Part shown: positions 30,417 to 41,163 of the stretch, piece by piece
How positions within the stretch are numbered: position 1 is the first letter of the stretch
How the letters are laid out: each line of letters opens with the position of its first letter
Source of the DNA: a virus
Lineage: Duplodnaviria > Caudoviricetes
Length of the DNA: 64,000 nt
Reading direction: 5' to 3' (one strand)
Virus record (IMG/VR): IMGVR_UViG_3300033076_001039
Coordinates: 32,001 to 96,000 of that record
Notes under the pieces: model-generated
Database searches by the model: none
What the model was told of the DNA's origin: nothing
What the model saw: only the letters and a program-made list of their open reading frames with translations
Made by a program: the position numbers and the translations under genes

Positions 30417-30794
30417 TTAACAACACGCAGTTTCTTTAATAAAACTTGGTTGTATGTTAATATATAATTCCTCCCTAATAGGTAATATTAAATCTCCTTC
30501 ATCATTCTTAATTAAGAACTGACCAACATATCTACCAGGTGTGTTAGTGTCTCTCGCTGAAAATTTATAGTAGATATAATATTCGGGTGCGGCGCCTAAT
30601 GGTAGTATAAGTGAAACGATTTCACAAGGGGCCGACACTATTTTAGGAATTTCAGTTTCAACGTCAATCATAGTGAAGAAAATAGTAGAAACTTCTAAGT
30701 CTTGCATCAACTCTAAGTAACCTGCTCTACCATCTTTAACTACTTGCATTTTTAATACAGGTAGTGTCGCATTTTGTTTAATAAAGAATTCCAT
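30417..30794 (-). CDS. BppU N-terminal-like structural adaptor protein
   Basis: FFIKQNATLPVLKMQV...YKFSARDTNTPGRYVGQF...ILP pattern. Confidence 0.5.
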   Translation of the reverse strand: MEFFIKQNATLPVLKMQVVKDGRAGYLELMQDLEVSTIFFTMIDVETEIPKIVSAPCEIVSLILPLGAAPEYYIYYKFSARDTNTPGRYVGQFLIKNDEGDLILPIREELYINIQPSFIKETACC

Positions 30795-30810
30795 AACAAT
30801 AAATATATTG

Positions 30811-32487
30811 TTATGACTCTTTTCTTAAACTTCTTTCGTAATGTTCAAATCGGTCATGTTCTGTTGGTGTCATTAATAACAATCCTGGATATAATTCACC
30901 TTTTTTAACGAGTTGATACATATGACTCATCCATGTTTGTTCAAATGGGTGACCCCATGTTGTATCCAAAAACATTTTTTTATTTCCTGTTCTTGTTACA
31001 ATTTGAGGCCAATTACAATAATAAACCTCACCTGTCACATATGGAATCCCTTGGAATGAGTTAATAGAGTCGTAAACAGCTCTTGGCGCATTTGGGTCTA
31101 GTCCTACATTAGGTAATCTATTTTTACCTGGCCAAAACTTTTCCCTAACATCTTGTGGTACATTATACCAAGACCACTGAGTTCCATTATCACCAAAGAA
31201 TTCACTATAATTAAGTTTTAAAAAATCAAAATTTTCTTTTTTAACAATTTGTAATGTTTTAGAATAAAGATTTGGAACGTATCTATTGAATCCATTTCTA
31301 CAAACTTCACCTTCATGGGGGTAAAAGAACATATCATCTTCGAAGAACAAATAAAAATCTAAATCTGTTTCATTTTGAAAATGTTCTGCAATCCATTGTC
31401 TACCACCACAAATACCTAAGTTGTCTTTCTTGATATGTTCGAAACCATATTCTTCGCAAATTTCAGCATAGTCATTAAATGTTGATTCGTCAGTTGAGTT
31501 ATCTAATAAAAACTTTTTGGTTTTTAGAATATAATCTTTATCATACGCATTCATTGATTCAATCAATGTTAAGAATTGCTTTGGACTATTAAATGTAATT
31601 ACATATAAACCAACTTTATTAACATCCAAAGAATTTGTAATATTTCTTGGGCTTTCCGATTTAGGGACTAAAGTATCATTTTTTAATTCCTCAAAAAATT
31701 TACCAACTAAACCGTTTGATTCAATTTCAAAATAATTAATCAAATCAGAATGTTTATAACACATAATACTAAAGATTGATTCTTCAGTACCCATATAACC
31801 TTCTTCTAAAGTGGTTTTTAATAGGTTATAATAAATCCCATTAATATCTGCAATTGTATGTTTTGGACCACCAAAGAAACCACCACGAGCAACTTTATTA
31901 ACCTTGGCACCCGCAAGTGAATTTAACTTATTATATTCAAAACCATGAATTTCTTTTTCTGCATCATAAGGGAAACAAATGAATGAAAATTTTGAAATAT
32001 ATTTTGATAAATTATTTAATACTTTATCGTGAGTAAAATAACCTTGGTGTACTGTATTAGTTAATCCACCGTCAATCCAAAACATATATTCAGAATTAAA
32101 CTTATCCATTATTTTTGCATCATGAAGTAGAAACACTTTAGACATAACTAATGGATTGTAGTTTTCTAATCTACCTTGAGTCGATTCTTTTAACCATCCT
32201 GCCAAGTTCTGCCAATTTTCATCTGTCCTAATTTCTTGGATTTTATTAAAGAATTCTGAGTCAGTAAACCAAGACATAGGTCTTAATATGAATTGAGTAT
32301 TTTCATGACTCCTTCTTTCAAATACAAATGTTTGAAGTTCTTCATCACCAAAAATAATCATGTTCTCCTCACATTTAAGCAATTGCTCAAACTTATCTAA
32401 ATAATGTTGGAATGGTCTTGACCATCCTTCGGATAATTGACCTCTACCAATATCCCAAATACCTGTTACTAAAGTTATATTACTCAT
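30811..32487 (-). CDS. HtrL/YibB-family glycosyltransferase fused to a C-terminal GT-A (GT2-like) domain
   Basis: ITLVTGIWDIGRG, FWIDGG, GGFFGG, GTEESI. Second domain has FLLDNS...FFEDDM. Confidence 0.7.
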   Translation of the reverse strand: MSNITLVTGIWDIGRGQLSEGWSRPFQHYLDKFEQLLKCEENMIIFGDEELQTFVFERRSHENTQFILRPMSWFTDSEFFNKIQEIRTDENWQNLAGWLKESTQGRLENYNPLVMSKVFLLHDAKIMDKFNSEYMFWIDGGLTNTVHQGYFTHDKVLNNLSKYISKFSFICFPYDAEKEIHGFEYNKLNSLAGAKVNKVARGGFFGGPKHTIADINGIYYNLLKTTLEEGYMGTEESIFSIMCYKHSDLINYFEIESNGLVGKFFEELKNDTLVPKSESPRNITNSLDVNKVGLYVITFNSPKQFLTLIESMNAYDKDYILKTKKFLLDNSTDESTFNDYAEICEEYGFEHIKKDNLGICGGRQWIAEHFQNETDLDFYLFFEDDMFFYPHEGEVCRNGFNRYVPNLYSKTLQIVKKENFDFLKLNYSEFFGDNGTQWSWYNVPQDVREKFWPGKNRLPNVGLDPNAPRAVYDSINSFQGIPYVTGEVYYCNWPQIVTRTGNKKMFLDTTWGHPFEQTWMSHMYQLVKKGELYPGLLLMTPTEHDRFEHYERSLRKES

Positions 32488-33361
32488 ATATTCTATTAAA
32501 TTCTTCTAATATTTTATAAAAACTTTTATTTTGTTCAAACAATTCATCAGTTACACCCGCAGGTGCATTGTCTCTACACCACCAAATGTCAAAGTGTTTA
32601 CGTTCAAATAAATCACGATGATTGACATACATTAAAGACATCACGTGTTCTTCGTGTGGTAAACCTTTGTCTTCTTCAATAATTCTTTTTGTGTAATCCT
32701 CAAACAAGTTAACAACTGTGTCCCACTTATCTCTATGACCACCAAACATACCACCAATGACGTGGATACTTCTATCGTATTCAGTATACCATTTTCTATC
32801 AACAGTACCTGACCAATAGTTACGGTCATTTTCTTTACCAAGGATTAAAAATTTATCACCAGTATCTTCAATAACATTTTTAAGAAAGTCGTTATTAAAT
32901 AAATTACTTTCATAGTATCTGCCTTGAGGGTGTTGACTTGTCAAATATTTTAAAGGAATTAATCCACAATGAGATAAACCAGCGTCTATCCAATAATAGT
33001 AGTCGTAAGATTTATCTTCATTCCACCACCAATGGAATTTACTATATTGAACCTCAATACATCTATCAGATTTTTTAGTTTCTTCAATATTTTTATACTG
33101 ATTAATCAAATCTTTAAATTTGGTATTACCAATATCAAAAATTTTAAATTCTAATTTCTCGGGTGATATATTATTTTCATTATAAAAAAACTCTTTTAAT
33201 GAGTCTATTTCTCTATCTGAAGTATAACACAAAAAATCTGCATCGGTCATTTTTAGTAATGATAGAAGACTATATCTATAGTGTCCTCCTCTACCTACTC
33301 GACCTCCGAATTCCGTACCATACAAATCGCTGTAAATTGATGTAATAAATTTAACTGACAT
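32480..33361 (-). CDS. HtrL/YibB-like glycosyltransferase
   Basis: YWIDAGL, IGGMFGG, HEEHVMS. Start placed at ATG 33361 (MSVKFITSIY), overlapping the upstream stop. Confidence 0.6.
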   Translation of the reverse strand: MSVKFITSIYSDLYGTEFGGRVGRGGHYRYSLLSLLKMTDADFLCYTSDREIDSLKEFFYNENNISPEKLEFKIFDIGNTKFKDLINQYKNIEETKKSDRCIEVQYSKFHWWWNEDKSYDYYYWIDAGLSHCGLIPLKYLTSQHPQGRYYESNLFNNDFLKNVIEDTGDKFLILGKENDRNYWSGTVDRKWYTEYDRSIHVIGGMFGGHRDKWDTVVNLFEDYTKRIIEEDKGLPHEEHVMSLMYVNHRDLFERKHFDIWWCRDNAPAGVTDELFEQNKSFYKILEEFNRIYE

Positions 33362-34094
33362 AATACACTTCTTTATATTCTTTATTGTTTTTAATTTCTT
33401 GATTTCTGTATTGGTCCATGAATTCACCAGGAATCTTTACAGGACTAAAGACATTCCAGTTATAAGTTTGTAAATAAAAATTATTATACACTCCATCTGA
33501 AATATTAGACAAATCATTTCCTTGGGGTGCAACTGGTAAAATAGGACAGTAACTTTGGTATTTAGATATTATAAATTGGAAAATAAAATCGTCTATCGCA
33601 TAAAAATAGTCTCCACTTGGAAATGCGGTTTCTTTTATTTCGAATAATTTATCGTAAATTGATTCATCAAAAATAATCATATTACATGCGTATATGTCCC
33701 GTAAATGTTCAGGTTTTTCAGGTAAATTAGTCATGTCCAATAACATATCATTATCTGAAGACATATTAATGTGTCTATTTAAAGTCGGTGCCAAATTAAA
33801 CACACCAAATTCTAAACCCTCACATTTTTCTTCTAATTTGGTTAATAAATCTTTGGCATACGGCATAAAACCAATATCATCTTCAATAACCATAACCCGT
33901 GGGTATTTACGTTCTTTAGCGATTTTAATAATTTCTAAAATTGAACGGGTAATACCCATATAAGAATTGGTATCTATTGCTTTAAAGACTTCATAGTCCC
34001 ATCCAATATATTCCATCTCCTTTTTAACTTTCTCAAGTCTATCGGGTCTTCTTTCTAAATTGACTACGAATTTAGGTATATTATTGAATTTCAT
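33351..34094 (-). CDS. Glycosyltransferase family 25-like
   Basis: VVNLERRPDRL, VFKAID, VIEDD. Confidence 0.75.
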   Translation of the reverse strand: MKFNNIPKFVVNLERRPDRLEKVKKEMEYIGWDYEVFKAIDTNSYMGITRSILEIIKIAKERKYPRVMVIEDDIGFMPYAKDLLTKLEEKCEGLEFGVFNLAPTLNRHINMSSDNDMLLDMTNLPEKPEHLRDIYACNMIIFDESIYDKLFEIKETAFPSGDYFYAIDDFIFQFIISKYQSYCPILPVAPQGNDLSNISDGVYNNFYLQTYNWNVFSPVKIPGEFMDQYRNQEIKNNKEYKEVYYVS

Positions 34095-35359
34095 TAACTA
34101 ACGTGATTGTGAGTTAATCGACCTGTAATTCTATCACACCATCCTTTGGATTCTGAGTGAGGCCATACCACCCAATAAGATGGCATCTCATCAGTTTGGA
34201 ATTCTCTCCATACTTTACAATAACCGTCAGGGTCTCTCATGAAACCTGCAATTTCATTTTTGTCCGCATCTTTACGGAAAAGAGTATCATCTTTATCATT
34301 GTGGAATGCAACAACCCAAAAGTCATAATCAGTTTCAGGTACTTGGGAATACCCAATATCGATACAATGTTTAAACATCATACAGAAACTATCCTTCCAT
34401 TCTTGTTCAGTTTCAAAATTGTATGGATTTGGAGGATAATTTTTATCTAAAGTATATTTGTCAATCGCACGTTTTTCAAATAAAATGCCCGCATATTTTT
34501 CATAGTCAGTCAAAGTTCTAACAGGACCAAAACCATAAGGTCCATCATGACCCTCTTGTTTTTCACCATCCATACCAAACAATTTTCTGTTTGTTAAATG
34601 TGAATGAGTATTTCTTTGACCCCAAGTCTTATCATCATCCCACTGTTTTGTTCTACCCTTACGAGTGTACTCATGGTAAACAACAGGAATGTGTGGGTGG
34701 AATAAATCATATCCCCAAGTGTAAGCTCTTGCTGCAATTGAAATTTCTTCTCCGTGGAAATAATATTCAGGGTTGTGTTGAACTTCAGTTGAGAATTGTC
34801 CTAATGTGAAACAGAAGTGAGCTGAGTAGAATCTTGCAGTAACAGGTTTTTTCATCTCTTTCCAACCTGGAATTGTTTCAGGTAAGAAGAATACCGCACC
34901 TTCAGGAATGAATCGGTCAAACACCATTCTCCAAGCATCTGTTGCTCTTCCCGCAGGGTCATTATCGGGGTCAAAAGAAGGAACGTAGCCCGTAAGTAGA
35001 GGCTTCTTATACCCGTCCTTCTGTAACCCCTTTATCATTTTGATAAGGATGTCATCCCAATCCTTAACAAATCTCATATGAGAATCAATTTGTAATGTAT
35101 AAGTTTCTCCTTTATATAGTTGTTGTACTTGATGTCTTGCCCAACATACCCCTTTGGCATCTTGATAAGGAATATCTAATATTCTAAATCTTTTGTCGTT
35201 TCTATATTCGTCTAAATTATCAAACCCATCTTCTTCACTGTATTGTCTTGCAATACCAATAACAAGGTTATTCGGTTTCTTGGCATTTGCCAACATGTCT
35301 TTAATGGTGGGGACCAACTGTGGGTCGCGGTACGATGCAATCTGAACAAAAATTTTCAT
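34094..35359 (-). CDS. GT60-family polypeptide N-acetylglucosaminyltransferase (Gnt1/GnT2/OGNT-like)
   Basis: IFVQIASYRDPQL, GVCWAR, LQIDSHMRF (DxH), FHGEEISIAARAYTWGYDLFHP, VYHEY. Confidence 0.85.
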   Translation of the reverse strand: MKIFVQIASYRDPQLVPTIKDMLANAKKPNNLVIGIARQYSEEDGFDNLDEYRNDKRFRILDIPYQDAKGVCWARHQVQQLYKGETYTLQIDSHMRFVKDWDDILIKMIKGLQKDGYKKPLLTGYVPSFDPDNDPAGRATDAWRMVFDRFIPEGAVFFLPETIPGWKEMKKPVTARFYSAHFCFTLGQFSTEVQHNPEYYFHGEEISIAARAYTWGYDLFHPHIPVVYHEYTRKGRTKQWDDDKTWGQRNTHSHLTNRKLFGMDGEKQEGHDGPYGFGPVRTLTDYEKYAGILFEKRAIDKYTLDKNYPPNPYNFETEQEWKDSFCMMFKHCIDIGYSQVPETDYDFWVVAFHNDKDDTLFRKDADKNEIAGFMRDPDGYCKVWREFQTDEMPSYWVVWPHSESKGWCDRITGRLTHNHVS

Positions 35360-35384
35360 GTAATATTATTTTATATATAAAAAT

Positions 35385-35415
35385 AAAAAACCCTCCACGA
35401 AGGTGAAGGGTTTTT
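35385..35415 (-). terminator. Intrinsic terminator between the Thr/Pro-rich genes and the GT60 gene
   Basis: Minus strand CCCTTCAC-CTTC-GTGGAGGG-TTTTTT. A/T runs on both sides, so possibly bidirectional. Confidence 0.7.
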
Positions 35416-35436
35416 GTTTATATTAGTTTTGTTTTT

Positions 35437-36543
35437 TTAACATCCGTTAGGGTCACCACTTGTGATTAACCCTGCTCCACCTGTCACTAAGTACCATCCT
35501 GTACCGTTAGAGTAATAACCGTTAGATGCTGGAGTAGTTAATGATGTGTCAGTATAGATTGTATCACCTACGTTAAGAGGGTTTAATGATGGTGACAAGT
35601 AGTAGTTTGTAGTTGAACCTGAACAAGCTGCTGCTGATGAACCAGCATCATAAGATAAACTATACACATAATATCCTACTGTCGGTGTTGGTGAAGGAGT
35701 ATTTGTTGTTGTCGCTGTTGGAGTTTGAGTATTAGTTGGAGTTGGTGTTGGAGTTTCTGAACTTGTTGGTGTTGGAGTTAATGTTGGTAATGAAGAACAA
35801 AGTGTAAATCCTCCTTGTTCAGTACCTGTAGAATCTAAATAAACCACAAGACCTGCATTTGCATAATAACCTGTCATGTCGATTGTTACAGGACCTGTAA
35901 TTGAATTAAAGAATTGGGTGTTATTATCAAATATTGGATTTTCAGCATATATTATACCTGAAACTCCGAAATCACATGCAACATTTGAAGTTGAACCTGA
36001 TGTTACGTTAAACGCGACTCTAACATTTGTAGGTGTCGGAGTTGGAGTTTCTGTATTAGTTGGAGTTTGAGTGTTAGTAGGGGTTTGAGTGTTAGTTGGT
36101 GTTGATGTGTTAGTAGGGGTTTGAGTATTAGTTGGAGTTTGGGTTGGAGTTTCTGTATTAGTAGGGGTTTGAGTATTAGTAGGGGTTTGAGTATTAGTTG
36201 GAGTTTGAGTATTGGTTGGTGTTTGAGTATTAGTTGGTGTATTAGTTGGGGTTGGTGTGTTAGTTGCCGTATTGCTTGGTGTTGGCGTATTAGTTGGTGT
36301 GGTACTTGGAGTCATTGTTGGTGTTGGTGATGGGTAAACTGGTGGGAATACCTCACTTGTTAACACAACATTACTTTGATAAATTGGCGCGATTGAATAC
36401 GTACCATTAATTAACCAAATATTTTTTGTTTGATTAGGGTTTAATTCTACCTGGTATTCCCACATAGAATCGTCACATCTTCTATAATTAAAATTTATTA
36501 TAGTTGAACCAGTGTTCGTCAAAGTATATTTACTACAAGCCAT
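35437..36543 (-). CDS. Mucin-like Thr/Pro-rich modular protein, probably a virion appendage
   Basis: Small Cys-containing beta domains separated by long TPTNTQ repeats. Confidence 0.7.
36030..36330 (-). repeat. Coding tandem repeat with an 18-bp unit encoding [12 protein letters not shown]
   Basis: Near-identical GAGTATTAGT(A/T)GG(G/A/T)GTTT units with synonymous variation. Confidence 0.9.
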
Positions 36544-36570
36544 CGTTTTTTTCTTTAAATATAAATAGTG

Positions 36571-36783
36571 TTAATTAGGTGGAAATACACCTTCATTTAC
36601 CAAAACAACGCTAGCTCTGAATAACGGTGCAATGGAATAAGTGTCGTTTATCAACCAAATATTTTTAGTTTGATTTGGTTCCAATTCAACTTGATATTCC
36701 CACATAGAGTCGTCACATCTTCTGTAGTTGAAATTTACTTGGGTTGTCCCAGTGTTTGTTAGATTATATTTACTACAAGCCAT
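36571..36783 (-). CDS. 70-aa stand-alone copy of the N-terminal domain of the 35437-36543 protein
   Basis: MACSKY.LTNTG...[35 protein letters not shown] is shared between the two. Confidence 0.8.
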   Translation of the reverse strand: MACSKYNLTNTGTTQVNFNYRRCDDSMWEYQVELEPNQTKNIWLINDTYSIAPLFRASVVLVNEGVFPPN

Positions 36784-36804
36784 AATTTATTTTTTTAATT
36801 TCTA

Positions 36805-38562
36805 TTAGTCAATTGCAACTATAATTGGTGTTGTTGCATTTATAAATACATTAGTAAATGTGTATGTTGCAGTTGTTGCAGATATACCATATACTGTTTG
36901 GTTTAAGTTCGAATCTCGAACTCTAAGATTATTAAATGCAACGTTATTAGTGGTAACTCCTACCTCAACAGTATATGTTCCACCAAATTGAGTTGTTGAG
37001 AATATACTGTTACCAACAGGAATGTATGGTACTGGGAAATCAGGAGGAGATACGTTAGTTACTAAAACTGAATTTATAGTTATTCCTGATATCTGAGAAC
37101 CGTTTGTTGAATCGTTATTTCCAACATATAAAATAACATTTGATATTGTGGATGTTGGAGTAACTGTTGGAGTATTAGTAGGTGTACCTGTTGGAGTTGT
37201 GGTATTTGTTGGTGTTTGAGTATTAGTTGTGGTATTTGTTGGTGTTGGAGTGTTAGTTTCAGTATTTGTTGGTGTGTTAGTAGGTGTTGGTGTAGAGGTG
37301 CTTGTTTGTGTCGGTGTTACAGTTGGTAGACCTGAACAAAGAGATACGATTCCAGCAATACCTAAAGAATCCACGTCAATTACCAAACCTCCGTTGGCAT
37401 AATATCCTGTCATATCTATTGTAACAGGACCTGTCGGATTATTGAAGAATTGCGAGTTGTTATCAAATACAGGGTCTTCACCATATATTGTACCCGAATC
37501 TCCAAAGTCACATGCGATATTTGCAGTTACTCCTGAAGTAATACTAAATGAAGTTCTATTTCTTGTTGGAGTTACAGTATTTGTTGGAGTATTAGTTGGA
37601 GTTTCAGTATTAGTTGGGGTTTGTGTAGTAGTGTTAGTTGGGGTATTTGTTTGTGTTGGTGTACTTGTGTTAGTTGGTGTAATTGTGTTAGTCGGAGTAT
37701 TAGTTGGTGTTGCAGTATTTGTTGGTGTTACACTTGGGGTATTAGTAGGTGTTGAGGTATTTGTTGCGGTATTAGTTGGCGTTGGTGTTTTTGTTGCAGT
37801 ATTGGTTGGAGTCGCAGTTGGGGTAGGTAATGGACATCCACCCAAATAAGTTGCACTACCATCTCCGTCAATAATTGTGACAGATTCTGCACAGTAGATA
37901 ACACTATCAAGAACATTAACTGTAAATTCAACAATAACTCCTTCACAGTTTCTAACACCAAATCTAGTGTCATTATTAACACCACCAAATAATAGGAATG
38001 TTTTACAAATTGCGTTTGTTGGTGTTTGAGTATTAGTTGGAGTGTTTGTTGGTGTTGTAGTTGGCGTTGAGGTATTGGTTGGTGTTTGAGTATTAGTTGG
38101 CGTATTAGTCGGAGTTGTTGTTGGTGTTTCAGTGTTAGTCGGTGTGTTTGTTGGTGTTATAGATGGCGTTGGTGTATTACTTGAAGTTGCAGTTGGTGTC
38201 AACCCAACGGTTACTGATGGTGTTGGAGTTGAAGTATTAGTAGGTGTAACTGTAGGTGTTGAAGTGTTAGTTGGTGTTTGTGTTGTAGTTTCCGTAGGTG
38301 TTGGACTTAAACCTGGAGTAACTGTTGGAGTTTGAGTATTTGTTGGTGTTGGACTTGGTGTAGGTCCTGGTACCACAATAGAATAATTATACCCATATAA
38401 TGGAACATAACAGTTATATGTACCGTAGTAATAATCTGAAATATAATTAAAAGGAAATATTTGAGAACCTAAATCAATCGTACCTCCCGTGTCAGGTAAA
38501 TACGTAACATTTGCGGTTTGACCACTCAAATCATCACTTAAAATTCTTACTCCAATTGCCAT
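36805..38562 (-). CDS. Mucin-like Thr/Pro-rich modular protein
   Basis: Three long TPT(N/T) tracts separating four small domains. One domain is shared with 35437-36543. Confidence 0.7.
   Translation of the reverse strand: MAIGVRILSDDLSGQTANVTYLPDTGGTIDLGSQIFPFNYISDYYYGTYNCYVPLYGYNYSIVVPGPTPSPTPTNTQTPTVTPGLSPTPTETTTQTPTNTSTPTVTPTNTSTPTPSVTVGLTPTATSSNTPTPSITPTNTPTNTETPTTTPTNTPTNTQTPTNTSTPTTTPTNTPTNTQTPTNAICKTFLLFGGVNNDTRFGVRNCEGVIVEFTVNVLDSVIYCAESVTIIDGDGSATYLGGCPLPTPTATPTNTATKTPTPTNTATNTSTPTNTPSVTPTNTATPTNTPTNTITPTNTSTPTQTNTPTNTTTQTPTNTETPTNTPTNTVTPTRNRTSFSITSGVTANIACDFGDSGTIYGEDPVFDNNSQFFNNPTGPVTIDMTGYYANGGLVIDVDSLGIAGIVSLCSGLPTVTPTQTSTSTPTPTNTPTNTETNTPTPTNTTTNTQTPTNTTTPTGTPTNTPTVTPTSTISNVILYVGNNDSTNGSQISGITINSVLVTNVSPPDFPVPYIPVGNSIFSTTQFGGTYTVEVGVTTNNVAFNNLRVRDSNLNQTVYGISATTATYTFTNVFINATTPIIVAID
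37145..38370 (-). repeat. Three Thr/Pro-coding repeat tracts (about 37145-37325, 37565-37830 and 38015-38370)
   Basis: Degenerate GTTGGTGT/ATTAGTTGG repeats on the + strand. Confidence 0.85.
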
Positions 38563-38588
38563 GTCTATAAATACTTATTTTTTTTATT

Positions 38589-39152
38589 TTATCCACACAC
38601 GCCGACATTAATAATTAGAGTACCTGAAATTTGAATAAATCTCGCACCATTTGATATTGTTGATACAGGGTTAGTTGGTGGTATTGTTAAAACTTCGTTA
38701 CCATAAACGTTATCTCCCACTTGTAAATTACCGAATTCTTTTAATGAATATATTGTCACATTTGCAGGATTTGCAAACATGTTTACAGAATTACATACAT
38801 CTTGATAATATCCACCACCTCTTAAGTTATAACGATAAATTATAACAGGAGTTCGAGTCGGTGTAGGCGTTTGAGTTGGAGTTACTGATGTTTGAGTCGG
38901 GGTTGGGGTTACTGATGTTTGAGTTGGAGTCGGAGTTATTGTCGGAGTTGGTGTATTTGATGGACATACTCCCATATTAACAACGTCCAACGGAGCTGCG
39001 TAGTTCTCCACATATAATCCATCGGCACACACATAACTGGTTTGCAGTGGGTTTACTCCCGTAACACTGACAATACCAGTACACCCTGTCCATCGATAAA
39101 AACCTTCTTGGACATTATTGTAATTGGTTATTCTATAGTAATAGCAACTCAT
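38589..39152 (-). CDS. Short Thr/Pro-linker modular protein
   Basis: Cys-containing N-terminal domain, (TPTPTQTSV)x2 linker, C-terminal domain. Confidence 0.7.
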   Translation of the reverse strand: MSCYYYRITNYNNVQEGFYRWTGCTGIVSVTGVNPLQTSYVCADGLYVENYAAPLDVVNMGVCPSNTPTPTITPTPTQTSVTPTPTQTSVTPTQTPTPTRTPVIIYRYNLRGGGYYQDVCNSVNMFANPANVTIYSLKEFGNLQVGDNVYGNEVLTIPPTNPVSTISNGARFIQISGTLIINVGVCG

Positions 39153-39154
39153 TA

Positions 39155-41110
39155 TTATAGTGTTTGATAATATAAATCATTCGCAGGTACACTCAAATAA
39201 TACAAATCATTTCTTGGTATGAATATATAAACCAAATCATTTGCAGGTATTTGAATTCTACAGTTAAGACAATCAGGATTTAATAAATCGTATTTTGCCT
39301 GAAGTATTCTGAAATTATGTTTTATTTGAGAAGCGTTCAATGGTTCTGTATACATTCTAAATGCACTAATATCTCCAATCATACTTCCACCAAAATATTC
39401 TTCTAATTTAACATGTGTTGTTAATCCTGAATATATCGTATGATTTAAATCGTATGTCGTTAAACATTCAGGGTCTTGTTGGTAAACAATTTCATCGATT
39501 GTTTCAGGACATCCACCTGAGAAAGTTAAATTATCGTGTAGTCCTTGAGTTCCTCCTCCGATTGAAATGTTATATCCGACCCCAATTTGTTTTTCTTTCT
39601 CAACATTTAAAAGTCTTGGAATTATCTCTTCAAAGTTTTCCGTTACCATGAATAACTTTCCATTAACATAAAATTTAAGTGTACCTAATCTATATTTTTG
39701 TTCTTCGGTCCACATGTCGTTAAATGTTACTACTTCAGTCGATGCTGGGTCATAAGGTTGTTCACGAGTTATTGGAGGTTCAATAAGAGTAACACTTCTA
39801 TTTTCTAAAGTTGCAAAATAAACATCCTTAACTAACAGACCTAACCCACCTTTATCGTATAAGTCACAGGTGTCAAACCATTCATATCTTTGGAATACCG
39901 CATCAATTTGAACCCAATGTTCGACATTTTGATATGTTGTTCCTGAACAATCATCAAAGATTCCTCTCGTTGAGCACCATTCGGTTAGTGATGTTCCTGT
40001 CACATAAGTTAAACCTGTAAGACAAGTTCCAGTACTTTCACACCCACCAGTTATTCTGTATGTTTTCACACATAATCTTGGACTACCTGTGTCCCCACTT
40101 AATCTTAATGATAGGGCATTTGAAACCCCATCATATAACGGGTCTTTTTCAGGGTACTTGGCAGTTGTGGTACAATCACAAGGACATCCACAAGTACAAG
40201 TTGTTATTGTCCCACCTGAAGGTTGGTAAACCTGCATACAATCCGAAGATGTGTTTGCGGTACTCGCACAACCACAAGTGTGCATACAAGTCAAACCTGA
40301 TGTAACTCTTGTATATCCCGTATCTTGAACAGGACTACCATCAGCATAATGATAGAATTTATTCTCGGCTCTTGCCCCCATATAAAAGAATGTTCCTTTA
40401 TTATCAGGGTATCTTGCGTTTAATCCAACAGACGTATCACCTGTCCATCTATATTTTAATAAAAACTCTGCGGTCCAACCTAACGGAACTCTTTGTGGGA
40501 ATACTTGATAGTCATATCCCGCCAATTTATAAAACCCTTGGAAAAACCCTCCATTTAATCTCGCAACATATCCAACGTCGCCACCAGTATTCACATAAGA
40601 TAAATTATACGAATACGAATTATCATTCCATAAACGATTTGAGGTTGTTGTAAATCCTGTGATAGGGTGAAGTTTCATTCTCCTATCATATTTATATCTA
40701 CTGTATTTGTCTGAATTATTGGTATATAAACCTGTAGTGATTTGAATAGTTTCTCCTGACATGTTTTGAACTAAACCATTATCAATACCTGTCAATCCTA
40801 CATCACATAAATTTGTTACGATTGGACAAAAGTTAGGGTCAACATCATCAGGGTTCCAATAATTTTCTGAAACAATAGTTTGATAATCAAAAGAACATGC
40901 AGATGTTTGACAAAGAGTTGTTCCCGAACTATTGAAATCAAATTTAAATGGCATTCTATTACCATCGTTCACACCAATCAAAAATGGTGAAAAAACGACT
41001 TCTTGGTCATAATCCCTCTCGTCCGATGCTAAACAAATATCGGTTACTTCGTTCACAGGTTTTATCCCCCATCTACGAAAATTATACTGATTAATATTCT
41101 GATATGCCAT
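39155..41110 (-). CDS. Cys-rich LamG/concanavalin-A-like structural protein
   Basis: LKFYVNGKL...ISIGGG...GDISAFRMYTEPLNASQIKHNF is a typical LamG C-terminus. Clusters of CxC motifs. Confidence 0.6.
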   Translation of the reverse strand: MAYQNINQYNFRRWGIKPVNEVTDICLASDERDYDQEVVFSPFLIGVNDGNRMPFKFDFNSSGTTLCQTSACSFDYQTIVSENYWNPDDVDPNFCPIVTNLCDVGLTGIDNGLVQNMSGETIQITTGLYTNNSDKYSRYKYDRRMKLHPITGFTTTSNRLWNDNSYSYNLSYVNTGGDVGYVARLNGGFFQGFYKLAGYDYQVFPQRVPLGWTAEFLLKYRWTGDTSVGLNARYPDNKGTFFYMGARAENKFYHYADGSPVQDTGYTRVTSGLTCMHTCGCASTANTSSDCMQVYQPSGGTITTCTCGCPCDCTTTAKYPEKDPLYDGVSNALSLRLSGDTGSPRLCVKTYRITGGCESTGTCLTGLTYVTGTSLTEWCSTRGIFDDCSGTTYQNVEHWVQIDAVFQRYEWFDTCDLYDKGGLGLLVKDVYFATLENRSVTLIEPPITREQPYDPASTEVVTFNDMWTEEQKYRLGTLKFYVNGKLFMVTENFEEIIPRLLNVEKEKQIGVGYNISIGGGTQGLHDNLTFSGGCPETIDEIVYQQDPECLTTYDLNHTIYSGLTTHVKLEEYFGGSMIGDISAFRMYTEPLNASQIKHNFRILQAKYDLLNPDCLNCRIQIPANDLVYIFIPRNDLYYLSVPANDLYYQTL

Positions 41111-41118
41111 ATACTAAT

Positions 41119-41147
41119 GATAAATACCTTATGAGCTAGTATTTATA
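41119..41147. promoter_or_regulatory. Back-to-back divergent TATTTAT motifs (candidate late promoters)
   Basis: TATTTATC on the minus strand (41119-41126) and TATTTATA on the plus strand (41140-41147), between divergent ATGs at 41110 and 41164. Confidence 0.6.
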
Positions 41148-41163
41148 GATAAAAAAAGAAGAG

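Follow-up and report, generated by a model that had tools for sequence, protein, structure and literature searches.

A candidate phage-encoded mucin-type O-glycosylation system beside Thr/Pro-tract genes of a large uncultured myovirus

The analysed window is a 64,000-nucleotide (nt) stretch (positions 32,001 to 96,000) of the virus record IMGVR_UViG_3300033076_001039, which contains a block of genes combining a family 60 glycosyltransferase (GT60) gene with genes for proteins carrying threonine- and proline-rich tracts. The record, which is 128 kb long and 43% complete, includes tail sheath, tube, baseplate hub and neck genes, and its source is a large uncultured myovirus; complete relatives measure 304-309 kb. 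The block consists of ten genes, all on the minus strand and in the order first described (Table 1). The first-pass annotation, which had listed tract proteins, GT60, GT25-like and HtrL-like genes in one co-oriented block, is borne out in this respect. The glycosyltransferase (GT) genes adjoin a family B polymerase (PolB) gene.

Table 1. Genes and signals of the block (window coordinates; aa, amino acids)
Feature	Predicted nature or role	Position	Strand
TATTTAT motif	precedes 651-aa gene; others at ~38567-38573, 36561-36567, 30799-30805	41120..41126	-
651-aa protein	conserved, Cys-rich, fixed upstream anchor of block, possibly LamG/ConA-like	39155..41110	-
187-aa protein	candidate substrate	38589..39152	-
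585-aa protein	modular, candidate substrate	36805..38562	-
70-aa protein	stand-alone module	36571..36783	-
368-aa protein	modular, candidate substrate	35437..36543	-
Hairpin and U-tract	intrinsic-terminator-like, between tract genes and GT60	35386..35415	-
GT60 protein	GT60/PF11397 polypeptide alpha-HexNAc-transferase homologue, proposed initiator	34094..35359	-
GT25-like protein	exchangeable cassette member	33351..34094	-
293-aa protein (from likely ATG)	single-domain HtrL-like putative glycosyltransferase, exchangeable cassette member	32480..33361	-
558-aa protein	tandem GT-A protein, HtrL/YibB and GT2/GT13-like domains, near-constant GT60 partner	30811..32487	-
125-aa protein	conserved, own upstream motif	30417..30794	-

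The proposed initiator matches the GT60 profile PF11397 with 229.7 bits (cut-off 21, E=9e-68) and belongs to a family of 4,547 clusters at 50% identity. All of 50 close and 40 distant homologues, the latter 36-50% identical, retain D92-S-H94, E204-E205 and H229. According to the literature, GT27 and GT60 are recognizable by a DxH motif instead of DxD (PMC7185993). The AlphaFold model, with a predicted local distance difference test score (pLDDT) of 86, features a GT-A domain (residues ~1-324) and a C-terminal all-beta domain (~326-415). The sequence itself matches no PDB chain, and structural relatives were found by folding only. The best Foldseek matches of the model are to the polypeptide N-acetylgalactosamine (GalNAc) transferase GalNAc-T2, and the best VIA match is mouse GalNAc-T1 with a Muc5AC glycopeptide (Z 20.6, root-mean-square deviation 3.8 over 283 residues); the best match outside GT27 has a Z of 16.9. 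These fold searches barely covered the C-terminal beta domain. Structural identity to GT27 enzymes is ~12%, the protein has no ricin lectin Pfam match, and it falls outside the GT27 sequence family. By profile and model, the protein is a GT60/PF11397 family member with a predicted GT-A fold closest to GT27 and a predicted transferase activity. The PF11397 score, the DSH and GEE motifs and the top Foldseek and VIA matches confirm the first-pass assignment to GT60 and its kinship with polypeptide GalNAc-transferases (ppGalNAc-transferases). The enzyme has no type II membrane anchor, as its catalytic domain starts at residue 2 and the maximum 19-residue hydropathy is 0.88. Characterised GT60s either initiate mucin-type chains on Thr or act on the hydroxyproline of Skp1 (PMC8724618, PMC9472816).

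The Thr/Pro tracts are genuine tandem repeats, composed of ~48% Thr and ~22% Pro in the five tract proteins that a six-frame scan identified on the contig. The 368-, 585- and 187-aa proteins resemble beads on a string, in which modules of 60-110 residues, often Cys-bounded, are linked by tracts. Modules are common to these three proteins and to another tract protein elsewhere on the contig. For instance, one module of the 368-aa protein is 70% identical to its counterpart in the 585-aa protein. The 585-aa protein features three long TPTNT-type tract regions with 164 Thr, and the 368-aa protein two tract regions with 92 Thr, while the 187-aa protein consists of two small Cys-bounded modules with one 41-residue Thr/Pro tract between them. 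Of the three proteins originally credited with TPTNT tracts, two do contain TPTNT units (13 and 26), but the 187-aa protein has none. The stand-alone module reported alongside them is indeed a copy, with the 70-aa protein and the first, N-terminal module of the 368-aa protein sharing 80% identity. By hydropathy, none of the five tract proteins of the contig contains a strongly hydrophobic segment. Further tract proteins are encoded elsewhere on the contig (G000 C1:4014-5273 and 119785-121017). Both genes have the TATTTAT motif, and the second protein shares a module with the 585-aa protein. Outside the window, a minus-strand frame of more than 1,300 codons (G000 C1:1-3900), cut by the contig end, encodes very long Gly-Thr-Ser (GTSGSSG) repeats; its product is a possible second glycosylation substrate or fibre.

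Tracts also occur in the conserved proteins flanking the block. The 651-aa protein bears appended Thr/Pro tracts in 33/43 relatives, and the 125-aa protein is fused to such tracts in several distant relatives; conserved flanking genes thus acquire tracts themselves. Sequence searches with the 651-aa protein found no match among annotated phages or in PDB. The LamG-like call made for it is weak: an Atlas feature neighbour scores 0.93, with 113/256 features shared, but Pfam (PF13385) and PDB gave no match. The BppU call for the 125-aa protein corresponds to a weak PF10651 match (E=0.14) in 1/23 homologues.

The tract genes and the GT genes differ in their upstream signals. The TATTTAT motif was counted within 60 nt upstream of genes, where it is expected by chance in ~1% of such intervals. 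It is found upstream of the 651-aa gene in 23/23 relatives, the 585-aa gene in 33/40, the genes for the 70/368-aa modules in 59/64, the 125-aa gene in 88/91 and the neck gene in 59/59; sheath and tube genes have it upstream as well. The motif is rare upstream of GT60 (9/97), GT25 (0/53), the 558-aa gene (1/99) and PolB (1/79). We infer that TATTTAT is a late-promoter motif. The hairpin and U-tract before GT60 (z = -5.5) are kept in relatives, with stem changes. Because the motif classes and the conserved terminator agree, the tract genes group with the structural genes and the GT operon forms a separate unit. Although tract and GT genes share one orientation, their co-transcription is improbable, and a single-operon reading was rejected in view of the terminator before GT60 and the motif classes. 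A sigma-70 promoter scan remained at chance level (63 vs 53 +/- 6). The short intergenic region at 41111-41163 is divergent and carries TATTTAT on both strands, serving the 651-aa gene and a 303-aa gene.

GT60 and tract genes are linked in viruses. The [TS]P x4 DNA pattern missed the TPTN-type tracts of this genome, and a six-frame scan took its place. A tract gene lies within 3 kb upstream of GT60 in 91/99 viral loci, namely in 58/58, 18/19 and 15/22 loci of falling GT60 identity (60-75% in the last group). Synteny alone could account for much of this linkage. In kin with 37-42% GT60 identity (L482, L487, L488), however, GT60 has been relocated to the tail-gene region, and a tract gene is again found within two genes. 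Viral contigs chosen by a (Thr-Pro)5 DNA pattern alone contain PF11397 in 11/45 cases, as opposed to 0/46 collagen-pattern controls (p=2e-4); many of the 11 belong to the same broad lineage. Among 50,697 phage records, GT60 and the full-length 558-aa gene match the same four, XacN1, Xoo-sp13, CM1 and RAS14. XacN1 has at least 10 tract open reading frames (ORFs), including a six-gene array, and its ORF325, encoding a 3,313-aa tract protein, adjoins baseplate wedge genes. According to the available text of the XacN1 report, virions contain at least two Schiff-positive glycoproteins, tentatively ascribed by the authors to phage GTs (PMC5852040). The distant myovirus Mel-JY01, the one such genome compared, has matching capsid, portal and tail genes and neither GT60 nor tract. 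Two short viral GT60s (L479 and L480; ~330 aa, 28-31% identity) have no tract neighbour and lie among genes that look oxygenase-like by eye. The phage group comprises more than 7,000 homologous protein clusters.

The association recurs among 80 GT60 loci from bacterial genome records, a few of which may be viral contigs. A tract is located within 3.5 kb of GT60 in 22 loci and only further away in 6 (p=5e-5 per locus), and tracts are commoner when a 558-aa homologue is present (12/22 vs 9/44, p=0.01). The co-occurrence test proposed at first pass for GT60 and tract genes therefore has a positive outcome among kin and relocated copies as well as in bacteria and in cultured jumbo phages of Xanthomonas/Stenotrophomonas. 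In the tree, the bacterial GT60s closest to the phage enzyme are from Saprospiraceae/Lewinellaceae, which is compatible with a Bacteroidota host without proving it. These closest GT60s are those of three Saprospiraceae-type Bacteroidota loci (L148, L150:8504-9649 and L152:7997-9751), where a tract protein with a type IX secretion system (T9SS) sorting tail is encoded divergently from a GT60-HtrL pair. Other bacterial GT60/HtrL clusters (L157:8510-9235, L160, L175:4189-5064, L179:4503-5015, L195:6880-7476 and L176:6664-7284) adjoin small precursor-like proteins, in which a twin-Arg leader similar to those of twin-arginine translocation (Tat), with a W-x-KP...PAHA motif, or a PqqD domain is followed by a Thr/Pro tract. 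Such clusters look like leader-guided glycosylation systems, akin to those of ribosomally synthesized and post-translationally modified peptides (RiPPs). In Burkholderiales (L172, L194, L220 and others), GT60 has in its vicinity a Clp-type ATPase and proteins that resemble VgrG, some of which bear long Thr-Pro tails. Extensions of a type VI secretion spike may thus be glycosylated there, the secretion system being recognized by resemblance only.

Downstream of GT60, both HtrL-like GTs noted at first pass are GT-A enzymes or homologues thereof. Residues 3-252 of the 558-aa protein match HtrL/YibB (PF09612, E=4e-21), with a family score below the NCBIfam equivalog cut-off, and the 293-aa protein matches the HtrL domain in profile-profile comparison only (hhalign 98.8%). 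The 558-aa sequence has no match in PDB, and its relatives were found by folding only. Its AlphaFold model (pLDDT 93) contains two GT-A domains, of which the N-terminal HtrL domain is closest to the GT6 fold (BoGT6a, Z 13.0) and the C-terminal one to B4GALNT1, POMGnT1 and GnT-I (Z 14); these Z values indicate fold, not specificity. Judging from the model, the HtrL/YibB domain, which represents a family of previously undefined function, is a predicted GT-A fold closest to GT6. The GT25 match is limited to residues 6-44 (E=7e-9), and the gene was ruled out as a core component since it is exchangeable among loci.

GT60 and the 558-aa gene are the fixed elements of 131 viral loci, and the genes between them fall into 66 clusters and 43 architectures. 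In kin, these genes encode GT10, GT11, GT25, GT34 and GT2 enzymes, methyltransferases, a carbamoyltransferase, DegT and UDP-galactopyranose mutase (UDP, uridine diphosphate). From the gene content, the exchange is serotype-cassette-like, and the pattern would be expected of a constant initiator with variable elaboration. A second, larger sugar cluster maps to window positions 43978-65000 on the plus strand. It includes a GT2+GT4 fusion, UDP-glucose dehydrogenase, GT2, GT11, GT10, methyltransferases, a PglD-like acetyltransferase, a DegT aminotransferase, an epimerase and GT1, along with NAD synthase and dUTPase. In relatives, the GT60 cassette contains homologues of GT10, GT11 and FkbM genes from this cluster, and the cluster could share donors with the GT60 block.

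We consider it probable that the block specifies phage-encoded mucin-type O-glycosylation of virion appendages, so that the phage would coat its own particle with sugar. The pathway would be cytoplasmic, its GT operon being transcribed separately in the infected cell. GT60 would use a UDP-N-acetylhexosamine (HexNAc; N-acetylglucosamine, GlcNAc, by analogy with protist GT60s) and a divalent metal to attach an alpha-linked first sugar to Thr residues of the tracts. Extension and decoration of this sugar would fall to the tandem GT-A protein of the HtrL family and to the exchangeable enzymes of the cassette, which are GT25-like and HtrL-like in this phage and comprise GT10, GT11, GT34, methyl- and carbamoyltransferases in kin. 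The tract proteins, presumably late, signal-less and modular, would become part of the particle, forming stiff stalks with dense glycosylation between small domains bounded by Cys, and cassette exchange would result in glycan variation. The data show the enzyme family, the predicted fold, the intact motifs, the gene linkage, the promoter-motif class and the variability of the cassette. We infer the acceptor residue, the donor, the order of the enzymes, the virion location and the biological role. The interpretation is well supported by independent genomic and structural evidence, and is unproven.

An alternative regarding the acceptor is that GT60 acts like Dictyostelium Gnt1, with tract prolines first hydroxylated and then glycosylated. 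The enzyme is apparently soluble and cytoplasmic, as Gnt1 is, and the tracts are rich in Pro. Moreover, a Pfam check found 2-oxoglutarate-Fe(II) (2OG-Fe(II)) oxygenase fusions in 16/39 long relatives of the short GT60 type, as opposed to 0/21 with the C-terminal domain type. We surveyed the domains of 150 GT60 representatives and built a FastTree phylogeny, which did not include eukaryotic Gnt1/OGNT references. The C-terminal domain was found in 74 and a prolyl-hydroxylase-like domain in 11, and none has both (0/74 vs 11/76, p=7e-4). Oxygenase-fused GT60s form their own clade (support 97), whereas this enzyme, the XacN1 GT60 and the tract-linked bacterial copies group together in another. Profile searches for PF13640 gave no match in two complete kin or in XacN1-group genomes, although a diverged or host hydroxylase could have escaped them. 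The separate clade and the absence of PF13640 favour Thr over hydroxyproline as the predicted acceptor and make the hydroxyproline route very unlikely. P0122 and its relatives, in which 2-4 GT60 domains are fused to prolyl-hydroxylase-like and AhpC domains, also constitute a clade of their own. XacN1 ORF345, oxygenase-like by eye, was discarded as a candidate oxygenase, having no Pfam match and no homologue in this lineage.

Another explanation is that GT60 does glycosylate the Thr/Pro proteins but that these do not belong to the virion, serving instead as scaffolds within the cell, as released decoys or as proteins of the host envelope, or that its principal target is a different phage protein, e.g., the Gly-Thr-Ser repeat protein on the same contig. 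The bacterial tract neighbours are often exported, as evidenced by the T9SS tail and the Tat-like leaders, and the tract proteins match no structural family. We regard this explanation as unlikely, given that the structural-gene motif TATTTAT precedes the tract genes, that neither signal nor membrane segment is evident in their products, and that in XacN1 a tract gene adjoins baseplate wedge genes and the virions hold glycoproteins. Alternatively, the GT operon could modify host lipopolysaccharide (LPS), lipooligosaccharide (LOS) or capsule for superinfection exclusion, with the tracts as bare linkers and the adjacency as inherited synteny in a hypervariable island. HtrL/YibB and GT25 are families of LPS/LOS loci, which counts for this possibility, as do the large second sugar cluster and the terminator separating tract and GT genes. 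The cassette also resembles polymorphic cyanophage sugar clusters that have been read as surface-modifying (PMC7824862). However, every characterised GT60/GT27 enzyme acts on polypeptides (PMC8724618, PMC7185993), the linkage of GT60 and tracts persists after relocation and recurs in unrelated phages and bacteria, and the block has no flippase, polymerase or membrane GT; host-surface modification is, in our estimate, distinctly unlikely. Hypermodification of phage DNA could be envisaged from the position of the block beside PolB and from a weak match of the 558-aa C-terminal domain to the beta-glucosyl-HMC (hydroxymethylcytosine) glucosyltransferase PHROG (E=0.004). It appears extremely improbable, since the GT60 fold is closest to polypeptide transferases, GT60 lies away from PolB in distant kin, and none of the bacterial loci examined shows linkage of GT60 to replication genes. 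Complete kin also have no Tet_JBP match, in a weak search in which controls were likewise without match.

Several observations weigh against glycosylation of virion tracts by GT60. The literature searched holds no known acceptor for any prokaryotic GT60, and no tract protein has a structural-family match that would mark it as a virion part. Tract genes are missing within 3 kb in 8/99 viral loci and nearby in about two thirds of the bacterial ones. Since many of the supporting loci are close kin, the counts overstate independence. One kin fragment (L278, 22% complete) is without the GT cassette at this site. GT60 is absent from 5/6 near-complete tract-bearing viruses, and tracts therefore do not require it. 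In the available text of the XacN1 report, the glycoprotein bands are not assigned to ORFs (PMC5852040), and the 43978-65000 cluster shows that the phage carries out other glycan work, possibly on the host surface.

If this reading is correct, a pathway seen as belonging to the Golgi of animals and protists, mucin-type O-glycosylation, would take place in the cytoplasm of bacteria and be directed by a phage. Variable sugar coats would then be a trait of a very common group of large phages, with possible effects on adsorption, stability, grazing or immune recognition. The finding supplies candidate substrates for prokaryotic GT60s and a testable function for HtrL/YibB. Production of mucin-like glycoproteins in bacteria would also benefit from an initiator that is soluble and encoded by a single gene. 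The claim is readily testable, since the same set of enzymes occurs in XacN1, a phage in culture for which virion mass-spectrometry data are public. A broader proposal, which we advance tentatively and hold to be a little short of an even chance, is that GT60 with its C-terminal beta domain, a tandem HtrL GT and Thr/Pro substrates constitute a widespread and hitherto undescribed prokaryotic branch of mucin-type O-glycosylation moving between bacteria and jumbo phages. In the abundant lineage of this phage it would form a virion glycocalyx of mucin-like stalks with serotype-like glycan variation and would give HtrL/YibB a first function, as extending GTs.

Among known systems, the protist GT60 alpha-GlcNAc-transferases (T. 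cruzi TcOGNT and the Dictyostelium Golgi enzyme; PMC8724618, PMC9472816) share the Pfam family, the DxH motif and the GT-A fold with the phage enzyme, as well as, in our proposal, Thr-rich mucin-like substrates and an initiator followed by variable extension. In contrast, the phage enzyme lacks a predicted membrane anchor and a Golgi, has an extra C-terminal beta domain and is genetically linked to its candidate substrates. The protist Golgi OGNT subgroup is defined by a type II anchor and a secretory location; the phage GT60, proposed to work in a similar way, has no such anchor and is not a member. Gnt1, the GT60 that acts on Skp1 hydroxyproline in Dictyostelium and Toxoplasma, is soluble and cytoplasmic and starts a chain extended by soluble GTs, as proposed here. 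Gnt1, however, needs a prolyl 4-hydroxylase and has one target, whereas no such hydroxylase was found in complete kin of the phage (PF13640), and hydroxylase-fused GT60s belong to another clade. Animal and apicomplexan ppGalNAc-transferases (GT27) are the best structural matches (Z 20.6 and 19.9), with DxH, an xE-type base motif and a C-terminal His in equivalent order, but identity is ~12% and a small beta domain replaces the ricin lectin domain.

Phage-encoded GTs are also known to decorate virion proteins. In mycobacteriophages, glycans are located at the C-termini of capsid and tail-tube proteins (Freeman et al. 2023, as summarized in the available text of PMC12619734 and PMC10877033), whereas the system proposed here would combine a GT60 initiator with an exchangeable cassette and with mucin-like tracts dedicated to glycosylation at many sites. 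Moraphages, large aquatic myoviruses with predicted Bacteroidota hosts, have four core putative GTs, and their description (PMC12619734) does not mention GT60 or mucin tracts. XacN1 ORF330-334 (PMC5852040) include a homologous GT60 (46%) and HtrL-like and tandem HtrL genes (41%), and the phage has many Thr/Pro-tract ORFs and virion glycoproteins. Unlike in the phage studied here, a carbamoyltransferase fills the cassette and most tract genes are far from the GT block; in its available text, the XacN1 report neither assigns ORF334 to GT60 nor names substrates. No phage system of this kind involving GT60/PF11397 was found in the literature searched, which did not cover subscription journals. The first-pass view that the arrangement is undescribed in bacteriophages stands, within the literature searched, for the pairing of GT60 with tracts, but not for virion glycosylation as such, which is known from mycobacteriophages and XacN1. 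Because phage-encoded virion glycosylation was already known, the new elements are the family of the enzyme, the mucin-like nature of the substrates and the variability of the cassette.

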